A DNA stretch of 30,952 bases from a virus. How positions within the stretch are numbered: the stretch's first letter is position 1; the number at the start of each line of letters is the position of its first letter. The stretch lies in the UHGV virus genome UHGV-0110025; one strand, given 5' to 3'. The position numbers and the translations under genes are program-made. The notes below the pieces were generated by a model. It had not been told where the DNA came from and ran no database searches. It saw only the letters and a program-made list of their open reading frames with translations. Below are positions 7,194 to 21,168 of this stretch, in pieces.

Positions 7194-7214
7194 TAGCCCT
7201 CTCTCAGAGGGCTA
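7194..7214 (+). terminator. Perfect 9-bp-stem hairpin TAGCCCTCT-CTC-AGAGGGCTA
   Basis: Inverted repeat read from the sequence, downstream of the small-ORF cluster and upstream of the 7347 operon. A T-run (tgctgttttt) follows only after about 15 nt, so intrinsic-terminator function is uncertain. Confidence 0.35.
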
Positions 7215-7271
7215 TGAATTAAAAATGCTGTTTTTGATATGTTAACCTCTTAACAGTTTCATCTTTAAATC

Positions 7272-7299
7272 TTGTAAAGTAAAACTTTGCGTTTATGAT
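7272..7299 (+). promoter_or_regulatory. Candidate sigma70 promoter for the 7347-8947 operon
   Basis: -35 TTGTAA (7272-7277), 16-nt spacer, -10 TATGAT (7294-7299), in an AT-rich intergenic region. AAGGAG Shine-Dalgarno at 7333-7338 precedes ATG 7347. Confidence 0.35.
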
Positions 7300-7346
7300 T
7301 GATAAAAATTAAAAAAGTATGAAGAGGCTGTAAAGGAGTTTTATCA

Positions 7347-7862
7347 ATGCCTGGATTCCAAAATGCACAGCAAAATCAATTTGATGATCATGCTCCAGAA
7401 ATGGAGATAAACTTAATCGTAGATGTTGCTGAGCAGCCCGTAGCCTTTACCTATCAATATAGTGAGCAAATTAGCCACCTTGCACCGCAATGTCCGCCAG
7501 CAGAAGCGATTGAATGTGACAAAGAATGCTGGCGCTTCACTCTCAATCCGATAACGGACAGTTGCTTTTGGCCTCCAAAAAGAAGGGTTCCTGAGAGGGT
7601 TGCCTCAGACAGTCAGCAGGAGTGCTCTATGTGGGCGTTGTCTATGTATGAATCAGAGCGACAAGCTGTAGTCGCTTATTCTGGGCTTTCTAAGTCAGTG
7701 AGAAATATTAAGAAAACAATTGGAGATCACCTTGCAAGAGGCACGGTAGCTTGTGGTGATGGTAGATGTATGCCTCCAAATAGAAAAGGCCATTTTGACT
7801 TTCATCCATATTTAGATACTGAGTTCCCTGATGGCTTTCAGGTAATAAGAGCATTACCATGA
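7347..7862 (+). CDS. Hypothetical Cys-rich protein, gene 1 of an accessory two-gene operon
   Basis: 171-aa ORF with strong SD, AT-rich codon usage unlike the phage backbone, several Cys pairs (CPPAEAIECDKEC ... CGDGRC). No motif I recognise. Stop overlaps the next start (ATGA at 7859-7862). Confidence 0.6.
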   Translation: MPGFQNAQQNQFDDHAPEMEINLIVDVAEQPVAFTYQYSEQISHLAPQCPPAEAIECDKECWRFTLNPITDSCFWPPKRRVPERVASDSQQECSMWALSMYESERQAVVAYSGLSKSVRNIKKTIGDHLARGTVACGDGRCMPPNRKGHFDFHPYLDTEFPDGFQVIRALP

Positions 7863-8947
7863 TAAAATTAGATGCTAAAAGAATCACTGCACCGGAGGTC
7901 GGAGATTACTCGTGGTATTCTGACTTGGTGTATTTTGATGGACCACTGATTTGTTTATTTCGAGGAAGTGGCTATAAGGATGCTCTTTATGTTTGGCTTG
8001 ATAATTCAACCAGAGCCAACCGCTGGTGTTTAATACCTGTATCAAGGTCAACTTTAGATTCCTATCTTAATCAAAGAATGAGTCTAAGAGAAATCATACA
8101 ATCAAACGAATATGTTTATATTTGCAATCACTTTGCAGAAACAGGACGAAAAAATTATAGCCGTCTGAGCGTAGATGATTTCCCTGAGGAATATATGCCT
8201 GATGCTGACTCATATTTATATGAAGAAATATGCACCGATGACGCACTATTGTTAAAGCAAGAACGCACATCTAGCTATATGCTAGGACTGGACAACCAGT
8301 TGTTTATAAATGATTTATCAGAAATTCCAAAAATTTTCGAACAATTGTATTCTTTCCACTATGGACTTGCCCACTTGGGCAGAATTTCCATTAGAAATAC
8401 CATGCTGCGATTGATGGGTAGTTGGACTGGTGGATTCTCAGCAGTAAATATTTTCACTGGTTTAAAGAATGTCATTCCTGTCCTGCACCGCCCAGAAGTT
8501 AGCTCACTTCAATATAACTCCCCCGGACATATTGAATTGAACTTGCTTCCTGACTTGGCGCAGAGCGTTCAGGATGTATCTGTTCGTGTTGAAAATGAAT
8601 TTATTTATGACCGTTTAGAGAAAATCTATAAAAACAATTACACATACTTTAAAGATAAAGATCTATCAGGTTTTGATGAGGGTGGAGGAATTGAGTTAAG
8701 GAACATCGACTCTGAAACCACAGAAAATCTTCGTAAGCGTGTTAGAATTTTCTTTAGGTGTTTAGGTTGGAAAACCTATCAAGCGCAGTTTGATATGATC
8801 GGTGCCCATCCCTTGCAGCAGTTACGCGCAGTTATGGCGTATTACAGACGCCTGAAAACATTACGAGAATATATTGTGGCAGATAAATTATTCATTGGTC
8901 ATTCGCGAGTGCCGGTAGAGCAAATTACTGTGAATACTGAAAATTAG
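7859..8947 (+). CDS. Hypothetical protein, gene 2 of an accessory two-gene operon
   Basis: 362-aa ORF translationally coupled to the upstream gene, AT-rich. No P-loop, HExxH, HIT or other motif recognised. Located between gene A and cos. Confidence 0.65.
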   Translation: MIKLDAKRITAPEVGDYSWYSDLVYFDGPLICLFRGSGYKDALYVWLDNSTRANRWCLIPVSRSTLDSYLNQRMSLREIIQSNEYVYICNHFAETGRKNYSRLSVDDFPEEYMPDADSYLYEEICTDDALLLKQERTSSYMLGLDNQLFINDLSEIPKIFEQLYSFHYGLAHLGRISIRNTMLRLMGSWTGGFSAVNIFTGLKNVIPVLHRPEVSSLQYNSPGHIELNLLPDLAQSVQDVSVRVENEFIYDRLEKIYKNNYTYFKDKDLSGFDEGGGIELRNIDSETTENLRKRVRIFFRCLGWKTYQAQFDMIGAHPLQQLRAVMAYYRRLKTLREYIVADKLFIGHSRVPVEQITVNTEN

Positions 8948-9073
8948 CTTTCTGCATGAGGATGCGTGAATCTGCATTATTTATTAATTCAACCCATAGA
9001 TACTGTAGGACGCAATAGGCATGGGCTTGAGACCAAAATGCAACTGCATTAAAACCGCCCCATTAAGCGGGTA

Positions 9074-9092
9074 GGCGTGGCGGGGAAAGCAT
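9074..9092. other. cos: cos site (19-nt cohesive end) GGCGTGGCGGGGAAAGCAT
   Basis: Differs at two positions from the P2 cohesive end as I recall it (GGCGAGGCGGGGAAAGCAC). Lies in a GC-rich non-coding stretch between the A-side accessory genes and portal gene Q, where cos sits in an integrated P2-type prophage. Confidence 0.7.
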
Positions 9093-9311
9093 TGCGCGCC
9101 AGCAGTGATGCGTAATAATAAAAATTATCCTCTGAGCGCGTCGTGATGGCGCTGTCGTGGTCGCTGCTGGTTCGTTGGTGGTCGGGTGTGTTCGTGCGCG
9201 TGAGACGCATCTGATGCGTGATGGTGGTGTGCATGGAAAAGCCACCAGGAGCAGCGGCTTTACAGGAGTGGCAGGATTCAAACTGCTAATTATGTTTCTA
9301 CTATGATTAAA

Positions 9312-10316
9312 CTAATTTACATGTATGTAGAGTTCACCGTCGCCAGACCAATCGGGACACTCTAAAACAAGCCCAAACTGCTTGAATATTTCATCAATGA
9401 TTATTGTTATCTCCCGAAAATCACCAAAACCTGTAATGTGCTGGTCATTAAACTTCCCATAAAGATTCTGAAAAGCAATGCCTAATTCTGATAATTGATA
9501 TCTTATCTTTGAGTTGGATAGTGTAAGGGATAGCTTTGGATCGTATTCTTTAATATTGATGTTTAGAGAATGGACATAACCCATCGCATAAGCATAAGAG
9601 TTGATGATTAGCCTGATACGTTTTTTTACTTCGAGATACATGTCATTCAGAGAAATATTACCGTACTTATAACCCCAGATGAGTTTTTCAATCTCGTCAG
9701 ATACTTCATTTACAACAGTGTCAAGATTCTCTAAAAATAAATCAATAGTTTCTTGAGGGGCAGACCCCGAAGACATGTAATTAGCGAGATATTCAGACCA
9801 TGCACGCGTGGCTGAGATAAGAAGCGCGCTACCATACTCGTTGACTGTAAAATTTTGGGCTAAGCATGTTAGTAAGTTTTTTTCATGTACGTGCACTAAT
9901 TCATGGTGAATGCGATGGATGACTGCGAGGTATCCTTCTTCTTTCAGTTTTAAGAAGCTACCATCATTGAAAAGCTCAACAAAAAAATCAATCGATAGCA
10001 CAAGGGTATATTCTTCACATAGCCCATCATTGCCAATTTTTGTTACTAACTGCCCGACGGCTGCGCCCTGTTTGCTATTGGTAAATGAACTAGGGGATTT
10101 GTGTTGGTAAGAGGATGTTACCTTTTGAAGAGCTTCACTGAAGTTATAGGAAACAATCACGCATTTTAATTTGGAGATATCAAGATTGAGATTTTTTGTT
10201 AAAGCTCGGATAGCTTCTAGTGTGAAATTACCGATATTATTTGCTTCTTGCTCAGTAGCGAAACCTTCGAGGGTTATTTTAAAATCAGTTTCCAAAATAT
10301 TAATCTCCGCGCCCAT
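9312..10316 (-). CDS. Hypothetical protein with HExxH zinc-metallopeptidase-like motif
   Basis: 334-aa ORF, AT-rich, containing IHRIHHELVHVHEKN (HELVH = HExxH, with a second HE just downstream). Inserted between cos and Q. No strong SD at ATG 10316. Confidence 0.65.
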   Translation of the reverse strand: MGAEINILETDFKITLEGFATEQEANNIGNFTLEAIRALTKNLNLDISKLKCVIVSYNFSEALQKVTSSYQHKSPSSFTNSKQGAAVGQLVTKIGNDGLCEEYTLVLSIDFFVELFNDGSFLKLKEEGYLAVIHRIHHELVHVHEKNLLTCLAQNFTVNEYGSALLISATRAWSEYLANYMSSGSAPQETIDLFLENLDTVVNEVSDEIEKLIWGYKYGNISLNDMYLEVKKRIRLIINSYAYAMGYVHSLNINIKEYDPKLSLTLSNSKIRYQLSELGIAFQNLYGKFNDQHITGFGDFREITIIIDEIFKQFGLVLECPDWSGDGELYIHVN

Positions 10317-16222: not shown

Positions 16223-16732
16223 ATGACGACAGTAATACTGAATCAGCCCGACGAACCGCAGGACGTACCGGGCGTGGTGATTCCCGCACCGGAGACGGGC
16301 GACGCAGTGATTAAAAACACGTTCTTTTTCCCTGATGTGGATCCGAAGCGGGTGCGCGAGCTGATGCGCCTTGAGCAGACGGTTTCCGATGCGCGCCTGC
16401 GCAACGCCATCAAGACCGGCATGGCGGAAACCAATGCGGAGCTTTACGACTACCGGCTGCGCCAGATTGCCGCAGGGTTTAAGACACTGGCCGACGTGCC
16501 TGACGCCGAGGAAATCGACGGCGAGAATGTGCGCGTTTTCCACTACCTCAGCGCCGTGACGGCGATGGCGACCGCCACCCTGTATGAGCGTTATCGCGGG
16601 GTTGAGGCCACCGGCAAGGGTGACAAAAAAGCCGACAGCGTCGAAACCACCATTGATGACCTGTGGCGGGATATGCGCTGGTCGGTCTCGCGCCTGCAGG
16701 ATAAGCCGCGCTGCATCGTGGGTCAGCTCTGA
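16223..16732 (+). CDS. L: Head completion/stabilisation protein (P2 gpL family)
   Basis: 169-aa ORF after M, in the conserved position and of the expected size. Confidence 0.85.
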   Translation: MTTVILNQPDEPQDVPGVVIPAPETGDAVIKNTFFFPDVDPKRVRELMRLEQTVSDARLRNAIKTGMAETNAELYDYRLRQIAAGFKTLADVPDAEEIDGENVRVFHYLSAVTAMATATLYERYRGVEATGKGDKKADSVETTIDDLWRDMRWSVSRLQDKPRCIVGQL

Positions 16733-16935
16733 TGAAAGTCTACGCGATGCAGGGCGACACCATCGACGCGCTTTGCGCCCGGTATTACGGGCGCACTGAG
16801 GGCGTGGTCGAGGCTGTGCTGCAGGCTAATCCCGGTCTGTCTGAGCTGGGCGTCATTCTGCCGCATGGCACGGCAATTGACCTGCCCGACGTGGCATCGT
16901 CACCCGTAACAGAAACTATCAACCTTTGGGAGTAA
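16732..16935 (+). CDS. X: Tail protein X (P2 gpX family)
   Basis: 67-aa ORF overlapping the L stop, in the conserved position preceding the lysis genes. Confidence 0.8.
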   Translation: MKVYAMQGDTIDALCARYYGRTEGVVEAVLQANPGLSELGVILPHGTAIDLPDVASSPVTETINLWE

Positions 16936-16938
16936 ACC

Positions 16939-17235
16939 ATGACAGAAGGGGAAAAAGGCGTCCTGTCACTGTTTGTGATTGGCGTGATGATTGTTGTCGG
17001 AAAAGTGCTGGCGGGTGGTGAGCCCATTACCCCGCGCCTGTTTATCGGCCGCATGCTGCTCGGCGGTTTTGTTTCAATGGTCGCCGGTGTTGTTCTGGTG
17101 CAGTTTCCAGATATGTCACTGCCTGCCGTTTGTGGGATTGGATCCATGCTCGGCATTGCAGGTTATCAGGTGGTGGAAATCGCCATTCAGCGCCGCTTTA
17201 AGTCACAACAGGGGGATAGCGATGCCGGTCATTAA
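16939..17235 (+). CDS. Y: Holin (P2 gpY-like)
   Basis: 98-aa protein with hydrophobic transmembrane segments (VLSLFVIGVMIVVGKVL..., LLGGFVSMVAGVVLV...) and a charged C-terminus, immediately upstream of the endolysin. Confidence 0.7.
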   Translation: MTEGEKGVLSLFVIGVMIVVGKVLAGGEPITPRLFIGRMLLGGFVSMVAGVVLVQFPDMSLPAVCGIGSMLGIAGYQVVEIAIQRRFKSQQGDSDAGH

Positions 17236-17719
17236 TACTCACCAGAATATCGCCGCGTTTCTGGACATGCTGGCCTATTCCGAAGGGACGGCGATGCATC
17301 CGCTGACGAAAAATCGTGGTTACGACGTCATTGTCACTGGCATTGATGGCAAGCCGGAAATTTTCACCGACTACACCGACCACCCTTTCGCACATGGCAG
17401 ACCAGCGAAAGTGTTTAATCGACGCGGCGAAAAATCCACGGCATCAGGGCGTTACCAGCAGCTTTATCTCTACTGGCCGCACTATCAGAAACAGCTCGCA
17501 TTGCCTGATTTCAGCCCGTTGTCGCAGGACAAACTTGCGATTCAGTTAATCCGGGAGCGCGGTGCCATTGAGGATATTAAAGCGGGGCGTATTGAGCGAG
17601 CAATTTCACGTTGCCGCAATATATGGGCGTCGCTGCCGGGTGCAGGTTACGGCCAGCGTGAGCACAGCCTCGACAAACTGGTCACTGTGTGGCGCACGGC
17701 TGGCGGGGTGATGGCATGA
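17222..17719 (+). CDS. K: Endolysin (P2 gpK / lambda R-like lytic transglycosylase)
   Basis: Start at ATG 17222 (MPVINTHQNIAAFLDMLAYSEGT...), overlapping the holin 3' end. Lysozyme-like sequence. Confidence 0.85.
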   Translation: MPVINTHQNIAAFLDMLAYSEGTAMHPLTKNRGYDVIVTGIDGKPEIFTDYTDHPFAHGRPAKVFNRRGEKSTASGRYQQLYLYWPHYQKQLALPDFSPLSQDKLAIQLIRERGAIEDIKAGRIERAISRCRNIWASLPGAGYGQREHSLDKLVTVWRTAGGVMA

Positions 17720-18129
17720 AAATCCTGATAACGCTGCTGGTGCTGGCCGTGCTCGGGCTGCTGTGGTTGCGCCATGAGAACGGCAATTTATCCCGCTCCT
17801 TTGAGACGGCAAACCGCGTCGCAAGCGAACAAAAGACGACGATTGGCATGCTGAAAAATCAGCTCAGTGTTGCCGGTCAGCTTGCCCGACGTAATGAATC
17901 CGCGCAGGTGGAACTGCGCGAACAGCTCGCAAAGGCCAGCGCAGAGGCCAGCCGCCGTGAGCAGACGATAACGAGGTTACTTAATGAAAATGAAGCCTTT
18001 CGCCGCTGGTATAACGCTGCTTTGCCTGATGTTGTGCGTCGGCTGCACACCCGCACCGCCTGCGCCAGTGCCGGTGATTGTGGTCAGCGGATGCCCGAGG
18101 GTGAGCCTTTGTCCGATGCCGGGAAGTGA
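17716..18129 (+). CDS. lysB: Inner-membrane spanin (LysB / Rz-like)
   Basis: Start at ATG 17716 (MKILITLLVLAVLGLLWL...): N-terminal TM anchor followed by a coiled-coil-like periplasmic region. Confidence 0.7.
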   Translation: MKILITLLVLAVLGLLWLRHENGNLSRSFETANRVASEQKTTIGMLKNQLSVAGQLARRNESAQVELREQLAKASAEASRREQTITRLLNENEAFRRWYNAALPDVVRRLHTRTACASAGDCGQRMPEGEPLSDAGK

Positions 18130-18274
18130 CCCGAAAACCAATGGTGACCTGAGCGCAGATATCCGCCGTCTTGAGGGCGCGCTGACCGCCTGCGCGCTGC
18201 AGGTTAAAACCGTCAAACACTGTCAGGATGAACTCGATGCAGAAGCACAAAAGCCTGCGCAAAGCGCTGATTAA
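17984..18274 (+). CDS. lysC: Outer-membrane lipoprotein spanin (LysC / Rz1-like), overlapping lysB in another frame
   Basis: ORF begins inside lysB in a different frame and extends past its stop. N-terminus MKMKPFAAGITLLCLMLCVGC has signal-peptide and lipobox-like features; mature part is Pro-rich. The LCVGC lipobox is non-canonical. Confidence 0.5.
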   Translation: MKMKPFAAGITLLCLMLCVGCTPAPPAPVPVIVVSGCPRVSLCPMPGSDPKTNGDLSADIRRLEGALTACALQVKTVKHCQDELDAEAQKPAQSAD

Positions 18275-18704
18275 CGCCGTGCCGCAGCTCCGAAATAATC
18301 CCGATATGCTGCGCCTTTTTGCCGACAACGGCCATACCGATTCCCGACTGGCGAGCTCGCTGTCGTTTGAAAAGGTGTACGTGCTTAACGTGGTGGTTAC
18401 CGACTTCACCGGTGACCTTGATTTGATATTCGTGCCGGTGCAGGCGTGGCTGCGTGAACATCAGCCGGACATTATGACCACCGACGACGGGCGGGAAAAA
18501 AGATTCACCTGGATTATTGATATCAATAACGACGATTCGCTCGATATCAGTATCAGCCTGAGGCTCACCGAGCGCACGCTCGTCAAAGAGGTCGACGGCG
18601 CGCTGCACGTCAGCTATGCCCCTGAGCCGCCACTGCCTGAGCCGGTGACGCGCCCGGTCGAGCTGTACGTTAACGGCGAACTGGTGAGTAAGTGGGATGA
18701 GTGA
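18237..18704 (+). CDS. R: Tail completion protein R (P2 gpR family)
   Basis: Start at ATG 18237 (MQKHKSLRKAL...) with AGGA 8 nt upstream; the six-frame ORF begins at 18228. Confidence 0.8.
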   Translation: MQKHKSLRKALINAVPQLRNNPDMLRLFADNGHTDSRLASSLSFEKVYVLNVVVTDFTGDLDLIFVPVQAWLREHQPDIMTTDDGREKRFTWIIDINNDDSLDISISLRLTERTLVKEVDGALHVSYAPEPPLPEPVTRPVELYVNGELVSKWDE

Positions 18705-19143
18705 ATTAACCGCGCTGCAGGAACGCCTTGCCGGTCTGATTGCCAGCCTGTCACCGGCGGCACGTCGGCAAATGGCGGCTGAGATTGCGAAAAAGCTGCG
18801 TACCAGTCAGCAACAGCGTATCAAGCGCCAGCAGGCACCCGACGGCACCCCGTATGCGGCACGAAAGCGCCAGCCGGTGCGGAGCAAGAAAGGTCGGATT
18901 AAACGTGAAATGTTCGCCAAACTGCGCACCAGTCGCTTTATGAAAGCCAAAGGCAGCGACAGTGCGGCGGTGGTGGAGTTTACCGGCAAGGTGCAGCGCA
19001 TGGCGCGGGTTCATCAGTACGGCCTCAAAGACCGGCCAAACCGTAACAGCCGGGATGTGCAGTACGAGGCGCGCCCGTTGCTCGGTTTCAATAGTATAGA
19101 TATGAGAATTATTGAGCGGTTAATAATTGGGGCTTTGGATTAA
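18697..19143 (+). CDS. S: Tail completion / virion morphogenesis protein S (P2 gpS family)
   Basis: 148-aa ORF overlapping the R stop, last gene of the capsid-lysis late operon. Confidence 0.8.
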   Translation: MSELTALQERLAGLIASLSPAARRQMAAEIAKKLRTSQQQRIKRQQAPDGTPYAARKRQPVRSKKGRIKREMFAKLRTSRFMKAKGSDSAAVVEFTGKVQRMARVHQYGLKDRPNRNSRDVQYEARPLLGFNSIDMRIIERLIIGALD

Positions 19144-19171
19144 TTATGATCTAATATATTATTTTGTGATG

Positions 19172-19200
19172 AGGCTGGATAAACACCAGCCTTGATTTTA
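19172..19200 (+). terminator. Rho-independent terminator after gene S
   Basis: Perfect 7-bp stem AGGCTGG / CCAGCCT with a 7-nt loop (19172-19192) followed by TGATTTTAT. Sits between the convergent S and HIT-like gene 3' ends. Confidence 0.45.
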
Positions 19201-19842
19201 TAGTTTGAAATCTGCGTAATTATCAATAACCTCTAGAACACCGCTGATATTGTTATCTCTGCGCCAATTCCAATTGCCATGTATCAAATTTGCATTAGAA
19301 TAAAGATATCTAAGGAACTGAGATGGTAAGAGTGGTTTGTTGCATAAAAATTCATCATAACTATTACTCATATACCACACATATCCATTTTTAATGTCAA
19401 AACTTAAATTCTCACCTTCAATTTTCTTAAAGTTAATTTCTTTATTTAGAGCATTTTCAAACTCTTGTGTATAATAAACACAGTGTATATGAGCGTGAGA
19501 AATGCACCCTCCTGAACGATCTATATTTTCACCTGCTCCGCTTTCAAAGAAAATTAGAGATCTACCAGATTGGTGGATTATAAATTCATTAAGTTCTCGC
19601 AGAATCTCCTTGCCATTACTCCGGGTATCTCGATCAAGAGCAGCAAAGGAGTTGATATGCCGCTTAGGAATCAGCATCACATGCGAATTATTTAGCGGGC
19701 CAATACTAGGTACAATTAGAAAATCATTTGTTTCTGCAATGATATTTTTCTTGTCATTTACGATTTCATCGTATCCTTTGATAAGGCTAATGCCATTTAT
19801 TTCATCGCATATTCCACAGAACGAATTACAAGAATTATTCAC
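19198..19842 (-). CDS. HIT (histidine-triad) superfamily nucleotide hydrolase/transferase-like protein with C-terminal extension
   Basis: N-terminal CNSFCGIC, then FLIVPSIGPLNNSHVMLIPKRHI and the histidine triad SGGCISHAHIHCV, matching the Hint/HIT pattern (C-x-F-C ... H-x-L-V-I-P-K-x-H-I ... H-x-H-x-H). About 90 aa follow the triad. Apparent GTG start; AT-rich island. Confidence 0.75.
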   Translation of the reverse strand: MNNSCNSFCGICDEINGISLIKGYDEIVNDKKNIIAETNDFLIVPSIGPLNNSHVMLIPKRHINSFAALDRDTRSNGKEILRELNEFIIHQSGRSLIFFESGAGENIDRSGGCISHAHIHCVYYTQEFENALNKEINFKKIEGENLSFDIKNGYVWYMSNSYDEFLCNKPLLPSQFLRYLYSNANLIHGNWNWRRDNNISGVLEVIDNYADFKL

Positions 19843-20356
19843 GTTTATTGTCTCCTGGTTTTTTAGGGAGCAATTTTTCAGCCCAAGATGCGAGTCGGCT
19901 TAGAACTAAGTCTGAAAAATATCCTAATATAAAACAAATCGAGAATGCAATTTTGGTCTTACCATGCCCTTTAATGGAGGATACAAACGTATCCGGAGAT
20001 AATATCGTATAAGAACAAAAAGCCACTAAAGCAGCTAAGAACGGAATAAAAATCCTCCAGTAGAACTTATGGGATTCCCAAGGAAAATTATACTGATTGT
20101 TTTTCCCTCTAGCAGTTACTCTATAAAACCATTTTGCATTATACACCCACCCTCCAAAAAAACCGCCAAGAATAGAAAACAAAGATATTTTATTATTATA
20201 TGACAGCTCAAAAACAAATTGGAAAAGAAAGGCGAGAATGCAACCTATTACAAAAAGAACTATTAAATAAGCAAATTCGAATTTTATTTGTTCACAATCG
20301 TTATTAAAATAAGGCACAACCTCATCATCGCCTAAGGTTTTTTTTCTTTCAGTCAT
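19835..20356 (-). CDS. Multi-pass membrane protein, upstream partner of the HIT-like gene
   Basis: About four hydrophobic helices (FAYLIVLFVIGCILAFLFQFVF, ISLFSILGGFFGGWVY, IFIPFLAALVAFCSYTIL, IAFSICFILGYFSDLVL). Its stop overlaps the HIT-like start by 8 nt. Start taken at ATG 20356 (SD GAAGGTG 8 nt upstream); the six-frame ORF extends to 20407 (TTG), with another ATG at 20401. Confidence 0.6.
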   Translation of the reverse strand: MTERKKTLGDDEVVPYFNNDCEQIKFEFAYLIVLFVIGCILAFLFQFVFELSYNNKISLFSILGGFFGGWVYNAKWFYRVTARGKNNQYNFPWESHKFYWRIFIPFLAALVAFCSYTILSPDTFVSSIKGHGKTKIAFSICFILGYFSDLVLSRLASWAEKLLPKKPGDNKRE

Positions 20357-20532
20357 TTGCCAAACACCTTCATTTTTTACTGTGAGCCAGGGTAATTGCA
20401 TATTCAACTTGGCTATTCTAATTAATTCTCACAAGATTTCATAGATGTTGAGTAGACCTCTCAGAAGTTGTTTCATTCCTCACAGAATCCATCTCGATTG
20501 CCACTAATCTTGCCGGGCGTCATCCTTCCCAT

Positions 20533-21168
20533 ATGAAAAATCTAAATTCTTTGCAAGAAATCGCACGCGCGATCCGAAATCTCATCCGTACCGGCATCGT
20601 TAGCGACGTAGACCTCAAGGAGGGGCTATGTCGTATCCAGACCGGGGGGATGCAAACCACTTGGCTGAACTGGCTGACCACCCGAGCCGGTCGTTCGCGG
20701 ACGTGGTGGGCTCCCTCGGTCGGTGAGCAGGTTCTGCTGCTGGCAATCGGTGGCGAGCTTGATACCGCTTTCGTGCTGCCGGGTATTTTCTCCGACGATA
20801 ACCCCGCCCCGTCTGCCTCGGCGGATGCGTGGCATGTGGCTTTCCCTGATGGTGCGGTCATTGAGTACGAGCCCGAAACCGGCGCGCTGACGGTCAGCGG
20901 CATAAAAACGGCCGACGTGACGGCATCGGAGTCCATCACCGCAACCGTACCGCTGGTACTGGTGAAAGCCTCGACCAGTATCACCCTCGACACCCCGGAG
21001 GTGATTTGCACCAATAAGCTAACGACGGCGACGCTTGAGGTGCAGAAAGGCGGCAAGATGAGCGGCAATATCGAACATACCGGCGGGTCACTGTCGTCTA
21101 ATGGCAAGGTACTCCACACCCATAAACACCCGGGCGACAGCGGCGGGCAAACGGGGGCACCGTTATGA
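20533..21168 (+). CDS. V: Baseplate assembly protein V / spike (P2 gpV family)
   Basis: 211-aa ORF, first gene of the baseplate/fibre operon, with a Gly-rich C-terminus (HTHKHPGDSGGQTGAP). Confidence 0.85.
   Translation: MKNLNSLQEIARAIRNLIRTGIVSDVDLKEGLCRIQTGGMQTTWLNWLTTRAGRSRTWWAPSVGEQVLLLAIGGELDTAFVLPGIFSDDNPAPSASADAWHVAFPDGAVIEYEPETGALTVSGIKTADVTASESITATVPLVLVKASTSITLDTPEVICTNKLTTATLEVQKGGKMSGNIEHTGGSLSSNGKVLHTHKHPGDSGGQTGAPL

Follow-up and report, generated by a model that had tools for sequence, protein, structure and literature searches.

Two genes on the + strand occupy positions 17716-18274 of the window, that is, of the whole stretch of 30,952 nucleotides that was analysed, which represents a nearly complete genome of a phage-186-like phage of Peduoviridae. 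The first gene, lysB (17716..18129), encodes a Rz-like i-spanin of 137 aa and was identified from the list of open reading frames (ORFs), TIGR03495, and PHROG 89. Its ATG at 17716 overlaps the stop codon of the endolysin gene (ATGA), and its frame closes at the TGA at 18127-18129. The second gene, lysC (17984..18274, + strand), matches NF038368 and PF23793 and is predicted to encode a Rz1-like lipoprotein, an o-spanin precursor of 96 aa. The lysC ORF lies in the +1 frame relative to lysB, has two candidate starts (ATG 17984 and ATG 17990), and ends with the stop codon at 18272-18274, which gives a product of 96 or 94 aa. The two genes share 146 nt, and lysC continues for 145 nt beyond the lysB stop (18274 minus 18129). 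The sequence and the ORF list confirmed to the base the coordinates of the original prediction, which had lysC opening inside lysB in another frame and running 145 nt past its stop. Its text called the arrangement overlapped, and this term stands, since the o-spanin gene begins out of frame within the i-spanin gene and ends beyond it; its title called the pair embedded, which does not agree with the classification in PMC6139136.

The 2-kb stretch around the two genes, which includes the lysis cassette, showed 92% nucleotide identity to phage 186 and 99.5% to Escherichia phage vB_EcoM-613R3. Upstream of the holin gene lies the gene for tail protein X (16732-16935). The holin gene (16939..17235, + strand) is a homologue of P2 Y and of 186 Orf24 (PF04550 Phage_holin_3_2, E = 6e-42; PHROG 175), and the endolysin gene (17222..17719, + strand) is a homologue of 186 P (PHROG 90 endolysin, E = 4e-68). 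Phage 186 annotation calls the latter product an endolysin, and RefSeq assigns it to glycoside hydrolase family 24 or 104. Downstream of the spanin genes, we found the tail completion gene R (18237..18704, + strand), a homologue of 186 N (PF06891 P2_Phage_GpR, E = 1e-41). The PF06891 match begins at residue 4 of an ORF opening at 18228, the annotated start of R in phages 186 and P2 is equivalent to 18237, and an AGGA lies 8 nt upstream of that position. If R starts at 18237, lysC and R overlap by 38 nt, and 107 of the 291 nt of lysC are exclusive to it. Thus, the gene order is X, holin, endolysin, lysB, lysC, and the tail genes R and S, and the spanin genes follow the holin and endolysin genes within the lysis cassette. 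The synteny from holin to R is common to phages 186 and PsP3. In addition, a low-GC gene pair adjoins tail gene S. PADLOC and Pfam searches of this pair gave no match or weak ones only, and a paper on defence hotspots in P2-like phages (PMC13586616) contained nothing specific on a low-GC pair near tail gene S.

Protein families of LysB and LysC

LysB matched the TIGR03495 phage_LysB equivalog over residues 2-136 with 163.2 bits (cutoff 92.75) and PHROG 89, a Rz-like spanin group, with E = 7.5e-55. Weak matches to other Rz-like spanin PHROGs (739, 214, and 9841; E = 2e-5 to 2e-3) were also found, and no Pfam family matched LysB at E <= 0.01. The protein is 95% identical to phage 186 Orf27, 89% to PsP3 gp11, and about 61% to P2 LysB. 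Its sole hydrophobic stretch is at residues 2-18 (KILITLLVLAVLGLLWL; 17719..17769, + strand), with the highest Kyte-Doolittle 17-residue mean (2.57) at residue 2, and this stretch is predicted to be an N-terminal transmembrane segment that is followed by a periplasmic helical domain. An AlphaFold2 single-sequence model consisted of an unbroken helix from residue 2 to residue 119 (mean pLDDT 87) and a disordered C-terminal tail. By prediction, LysB therefore has the build of an i-spanin, a type II inner-membrane protein that crosses the membrane once near its N-terminus and is mostly helical in the periplasm. It also contains two cysteines, C116 and C122.

LysC matched the NF038368 P2_Rz1 equivalog with 127.3 bits (cutoff 27), and the alignment started from residue 4. 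Its sole Pfam match was PF23793 LysC (51.7 bits, cutoff 27). Together, the LysB/LysC pair matched PHROGs 89, 456, and 952, all of which are Rz-like spanin groups. LysC is 97% identical to that of phage 186, 95% to that of PsP3, and 72% to that of P2. The predicted mature protein (18044..18271, + strand) has 76 aa. Its N-terminal half is rich in proline (9 Pro within the first 30 residues), and its conserved C-terminal part reads NGDLSADIRxLE...C...QV...CQ. Periplasmic cysteines are present at positions 37, 43, 70, and 80, of which C37, C43, and C70 are invariant, and cysteines able to form intermolecular disulfides are thus present in both LysB and LysC. Comparison of LysB and LysC with solved structures gave nothing significant (best E = 0.25 and 0.81).

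NCBI already includes the exact 96-aa protein under the name "Rz1-like lysis system protein LysC" and the exact 137-aa protein under the name LysB. Furthermore, 21 complete E. coli genomes carry the 559 nt of the pair with an identity of at least 99%. Among these, the eight that were listed show 100% identity, and both genes are annotated in them. The hairpin proposed as an attenuator in P2 lysC is not kept in this phage (the equivalent stretch showed no better folding than shuffled sequence did, z = +0.59), and a pattern scan listed no terminator-like site within lysC.

Conservation of the LysC frame and selection in the overlap

The length of the lysC ORF was dropped as evidence for the gene. 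The window contains 55 ATG-ORFs that reach 96 aa or more, and an antisense ORF at the same site (17981-18409, 142 aa) is longer than lysC itself. Such long ORFs in alternative frames would fit a reading in which the +1 ORF is an unexpressed chance frame in GC-rich DNA and LysB acts alone as the "lysis regulatory protein" of older annotations. The missing annotation of lysC in several phage records points the same way. However, the LysC frame is open in all 80 distinct relatives of equal length, whereas the antisense ORF is broken in 75 of the 80 and the third sense frame in all of them. The original prediction was to be given up if no lipoprotein signal were predicted and the frame lacked conservation in related phages, and such conservation was found. 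A tblastn search with the 96-aa query hit 231 phage records, with query coverage of at least 80% in 224, and reached phages of Klebsiella, Yersinia, Pseudomonas (phiCTX), and Burkholderia at 37-45% identity. In addition, we gathered 95 loci (the window, 80 viral contigs, and 14 loci from annotated phages), and in every one of them the +1 ORF is present and has a start codon at the position of codon 1 of lysC. Phages P2, Fels-2, phiCTX, and phiE12-2 share the same +1 overlapped layout, with overlaps of 146-176 nt.

The substitution pattern among 67 distinct ungapped relatives also argues against a chance frame. In the part that codes for LysB only (17716-17983), pN/pS was 0.42 in the LysB frame, 1.10 in the LysC frame, and 1.37 in the third frame. 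In the part that codes for LysC only (18130-18236), the values were 1.72, 0.23, and 1.75, respectively. In the overlap (17984-18129), both the LysB frame (0.43) and the LysC frame (0.50) had low values, and the third frame had 2.80. Nucleotide diversity was halved in the overlap (0.127 versus 0.272 outside), and the diversity at third codon positions of LysB fell from 0.387 to 0.150 on entering it. Thus, the overlap DNA encodes two proteins under purifying selection. Besides the value of 0.23 in the LysC-only stretch, a chance frame would hardly persist in phages of Pseudomonas and Burkholderia at identities as low as 37% while keeping the lipobox cysteine invariant, and would hardly pass curated family models; moreover, PMC6139136 names P2 LysB/LysC as a spanin that was tested by experiment. 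This reading is already refuted by the comparative data, and we give it practically no chance. The families, synteny, selection, frame conservation, and the spanin database all agree with the Rz/Rz1-type spanin pair that had been proposed at the outset.

Probable start codon and predicted lipidation site of LysC

The annotated length of LysC varies among records. It is 96 aa in phages 186, PsP3, and P2. In RefSeq, however, identical E. coli DNA carries an 81-aa CDS (from ATG 18029, equivalent to 18029-18274), and vB_EcoM-613R3, ST147-VIM1phi7.1, Midge, and 11W carry a 159-nt CDS of 52 aa from the equivalent of ATG 18116. We counted start codons at aligned codons in 91 distinct relatives. Codon 1 (17984) is a start codon in all 91 (87 ATG and 4 GTG), codon 3 (17990) in 45 (it is ACG in the P2-like half), codon 16 (18029) in 80, and codon 45 (18116) in 85. 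A Shine-Dalgarno-like GAGG (17973..17976, + strand) lies 7 nt before ATG 17984 and 13 nt before ATG 17990, within the LysB codons for T-R-L-L. The sequence ACGAGGTTACT upstream of the lysC start is retained in most of 92 distinct relatives, and the same GAGGT is given in the spanin database as the Shine-Dalgarno sequence of the fiAA91-ss o-spanin. We take 17984 as the probable start, because codon 1 is universally a start codon, GAGG lies upstream of it, and the later starts (18029 and 18116) would remove the signal peptide. ATG 17990 may also be used, but this would give the same mature LysC.

The first 20 residues (17984..18043, + strand) are predicted to be a signal peptide, with the n-region MKMK, the h-region PFAAGITLLCLML, and then C-V-G, and the N-terminus of the precursor can be written as MKMKPFAAGITLLCLMLCVG|CTPAPP. 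This signal includes two lysines and a 15-residue hydrophobic core. The cysteine after the predicted cut is preceded by Gly (-1), Val (-2), and Cys (-3) and is followed by Thr (+2). Among 13 divergent homologues, G9 and L15 are invariant and A7 is nearly so. The codon TGC at 18044..18046 (+ strand) encodes Cys21, the predicted lipidated residue and residue 1 of the mature protein, with Thr at +2. Residues 17-21 read L-C-V-G-C, which had been noted as a non-canonical lipobox. Indeed, the strict lipobox patterns (PROSITE PS51257, DOLOP, G+LPPv2, and [LVI][ASTVI][GAS]C) fail at Cys21, and they fail solely because position -3 is Cys. Nevertheless, Cys21 does not vary among 82 unique homologues. 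The residue before it (-1) is G or A in every one of them (82/82), and A, V, S, or C occupies position -2 without exception (82/82). The motif is LCAGC in 48 and LCVGC in 27 of them, and more distant members have canonical xLSGC or LLAGC. Relatives of P2 also carry Cys at -3 (LCAGC), and this lipobox is database-assigned. The spanin database lists for the fiAA91-ss o-spanin a 20-aa signal, the lipobox LCAG, and a 76-aa mature domain (a cut at 20|21), and for the PsP3 o-spanin a mature domain of 76 aa (PMC6139136). The comparative data thus favour Cys21 as the predicted lipidation site of LysC. Direct evidence of lipidation in the LysC family was not found in the literature covered, which did not include the primary P2 lysC paper.

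Two other readings of the LysC N-terminus were considered. In one of them, translation begins at an internal ATG (18029 for 81 aa or 18116 for 52 aa), so that LysC would be made without a signal peptide and not as a lipoprotein. The RefSeq CDS, the four phage records with the 159-nt CDS, and the frequent ATG at codons 16 and 45 speak for this reading. However, neither internal ATG is as universal as the start at codon 1, and no GGAG-like motif was noted in the 21 nt that precede either of them. The protein sequence of codons 1-44 is conserved, with G9, L15, and C21 invariant, and pN/pS in the overlap is 0.50 in the LysC frame versus 2.8 in the third frame. A start at 18029 would leave five residues before Cys21, too few for a signal peptide. 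Furthermore, the alignment to NF038368 already begins at residue 4, the curated spanin database has the 96-aa form, and gene callers disfavour o-spanin genes of the overlapped type and often misplace their starts (PMC6139136). Considering these points, we find an internal start very unlikely. In the other reading, the lipidated residue is Cys37, with a canonical V-S-G lipobox and a signal peptide of 36 aa. Cys37 is invariant in the family, and the sole matches of LysC to the strict patterns, among them PS51257 (APVPVIVVSGC) and [LVI][ASTVI][GAS]C (VSGC), end there. Nevertheless, the motif around it is not conserved. The strict pattern is satisfied in just 18 of the 82 homologues, and position -2 belongs to A/S/T/V/I/C in 26 of the 82 and is often Asn. 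Three homologues have Glu, Arg, or Thr at position -1, and the variants include VVNGC in phage 186, VPNAC in P2, and SLNEC in phiE12-2. In addition, a stretch of 16 residues, for the most part rich in proline, lies between the hydrophobic core and Cys37, and position 37 lies outside the range of 15-35 in the PROSITE lipobox rule. The cut in the spanin database is also at 20|21, as described above. Cys37 was therefore rejected as the lipidation site, for which we consider it extremely improbable, and it more plausibly serves in periplasmic disulfide bonds.

LysC may also exist in several forms, through a dual start at 17984/17990 or through the largely conserved ATGs at codons 16 and 45, and the conserved additional cysteines of the signal peptide (C14, and C18 at position -3 of the lipobox) could modulate its processing. 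The MKM dual start resembles the S107/S105 motif of lambda. If this were true, the export-incompetent or differently exported products could tune the timing of outer-membrane rupture. We think that such multiple forms are improbable to a high degree, and the preferred product is the 96-aa precursor from 17984.

Proposed function and comparison with known spanins

Based on the sequence comparisons, positions 17716-18274 almost certainly encode the two-component spanin of a phage-186-like (P2-family) phage in the overlapped arrangement. In the proposed mechanism, LysB would be the inner-membrane subunit, anchored at its N-terminus and extending into the periplasm as a long domain that is largely helical. 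Translation of LysC would begin at ATG 17984 in the +1 frame and give a precursor of 96 aa. After export, this precursor would receive its lipid on Cys21, and signal peptidase II would cleave it behind Gly20. With Thr and not Asp at +2, LysC would then be sorted to the outer membrane and reside in its inner leaflet. By analogy to lambda Rz/Rz1, and in view of the reported tests of P2 LysB/LysC, the C-terminal parts of the two proteins may bind each other across the periplasm. After the action of holin and endolysin, the spanin complex would fuse both membranes, as the last step of lysis (PMC6139136, PMC3091744).

The closest known systems are Orf27/Orf28 of phage 186 and gp11/gp12 of PsP3 (Eganvirus), with an identical layout: the proteins have 137 and 96 aa, the second gene is in the +1 frame, the overlap is 146 nt, and 145 nt follow the stop of the first gene. 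The lipobox LCVGC is shared with phage 186, whereas PsP3 has LCAGC. The LysC of phage 186 reads TPEQPAPV where this one reads TPAPPAPV, and there are few substitutions overall. PsP3 is classed as "ovl" with an overlap of 146 nt in the +1 frame (PMC6139136), and the spanin database also classes fiAA91-ss and L-413C as "ovl" with an overlap of 146, equal to that of the present pair. P2, Fels-2, phiCTX, phiE12-2, and others belong, together with PsP3, to the P2 o-spanin family of the spanin survey, and P2 itself is an experimentally tested overlapped spanin in the +1 frame (PMC6139136). A comparison with P2 lysB/lysC had been suggested as a check, and it bore out the assignment: the P2 proteins belong to the same families (TIGR03495 and NF038368), and the P2 genes have the same +1 overlapped layout, with lysC running into R. 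P2 LysC also has 96 aa and a lipobox at Cys21 with Cys at -3 (LCAGC). However, it begins with MRTK and has no second ATG. In addition, the endolysin gene and lysB of P2 are separated by lysA (antiholin), which is absent both here and in phage 186.

Lambda Rz/Rz1 has the same functional design, namely, a type II inner-membrane protein and a small outer-membrane lipoprotein that is rich in proline and is encoded by the same stretch in the +1 frame, and each pair forms the final genes of its lysis cassette (PMC6139136). However, lambda Rz1 lies wholly within Rz (embedded), whereas lysC extends 145 nt past lysB. Mature Rz1 of lambda has 40 aa and one Cys (PMC6139136), whereas LysC would have 76 aa, the predicted lipidated Cys, and four others. 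No family shared with lambda Rz/Rz1 was found in the Pfam and PHROG searches of LysB and LysC. Because LysB has no Pfam match, its likeness to lambda Rz is one of function and architecture, and not of family. PseT.3/PseT.2 of T4, which are separate and non-overlapping genes, and the unimolecular gp11 of T1 have the same role in outer-membrane disruption (PMC6139136), and no sequence similarity between them and LysB/LysC was found.

The lysB/lysC pair is already known. It is a textbook overlapped spanin, and nothing sets it apart from hundreds of database entries. Its practical value is one of annotation, in that the same or near-identical DNA is recorded with an 81-aa LysC, a 52-aa LysC, or no LysC. 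The comparative data favour a start at 17984, which gives the 96-aa precursor, and Cys21 as the lipidated residue over what many public annotations imply. Furthermore, simple lipobox patterns mislead in the LysC family, where they point to Cys37.

Shortened and omitted lysC genes in public records

In many public records, the o-spanin gene lysC, which encodes a 96-aa precursor in the window (17984-18274), was cut short or omitted. It was cut to 52 aa in GenBank phage entries, including one by a specialist phage-annotation group, and to 81 aa by RefSeq PGAP, and both calls lose the signal peptide. Among the relative loci used in the comparison, the shortened genes were found at L002 1917-2075, L003 1918-2076, L004 2269-2427, L013 833-991, and L095 1814-2059, and the shortened calls correspond to window 18116 or 18029 through 18274. 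Furthermore, lysC was left out entirely in other public records. The shortening and omission of lysC is a systematic annotation error for the LysC family.

Within the LysC family, the 186-like half has the N-terminus Met-Lys-Met (window 17984-17992), a dual-start pattern shared with the lambda holin S107/S105. However, the second start is not conserved, because the P2-like half of the family begins with Met-Lys/Arg-Thr.

Other features of the lysis region

In the P2 record AF063097, a hairpin within lysC was annotated as a "putative transcription attenuator" at 8399-8417 (898-916 of our locus L005), with the sequence GCTGGCAC-GCT-GTGCCAGC. The counterpart in the window (about 18177-18200) differs from P2 in sequence, and its predicted fold was no better than that of shuffled sequence.

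The endolysin gene (17222-17719, plus strand) showed a strong match to PHROG 90, and searches of Pfam-A and NCBIfam at E <= 0.01 gave no matches for it. In RefSeq, some genomes list the same protein under glycoside hydrolase family 24 and others under family 104.

Low-GC genes outside the lysis region

A two-gene insert with a GC content of 0.34 (19198-20407, minus strand) is flanked by tail gene S (ending at 19143) and spike gene V (20533-21168), whereas the S to V gap of phage 186 is about 70 nt and empty. One product (214 aa) showed weak HIT/DcpS_C/CwfJ_C_1 matches and matched PHROG 23000. The other product (190 aa) was assigned to PHROG 22917 (unknown function) and had no matches in Pfam and PADLOC. 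In E. coli SF-468, S is adjoined by the same HIT family gene. In addition, the end of S and the convergent HIT-like gene are separated by a terminator-like hairpin (19170-19194, plus strand; z = -3.2 relative to shuffles), whose 9-bp stem leads into a T-rich tail. The insert may represent uncharacterised cargo, either accessory or for defence.

A low-GC island (about 7200-10200) includes two adjoining plus-strand genes (7347-8947; GC 0.37-0.41) encoding 171 aa and 362 aa, which scored 228 bits against the PADLOC model PD-T4-10_A and 561 bits against PD-T4-10_B, respectively. The neighbouring 334-aa ORF (9312-10316, minus strand) matched only PHROGs of unknown function. The gene pair is flanked by the replication and portal genes, and it appears to be an anti-phage defence system that the prophage carries as cargo.
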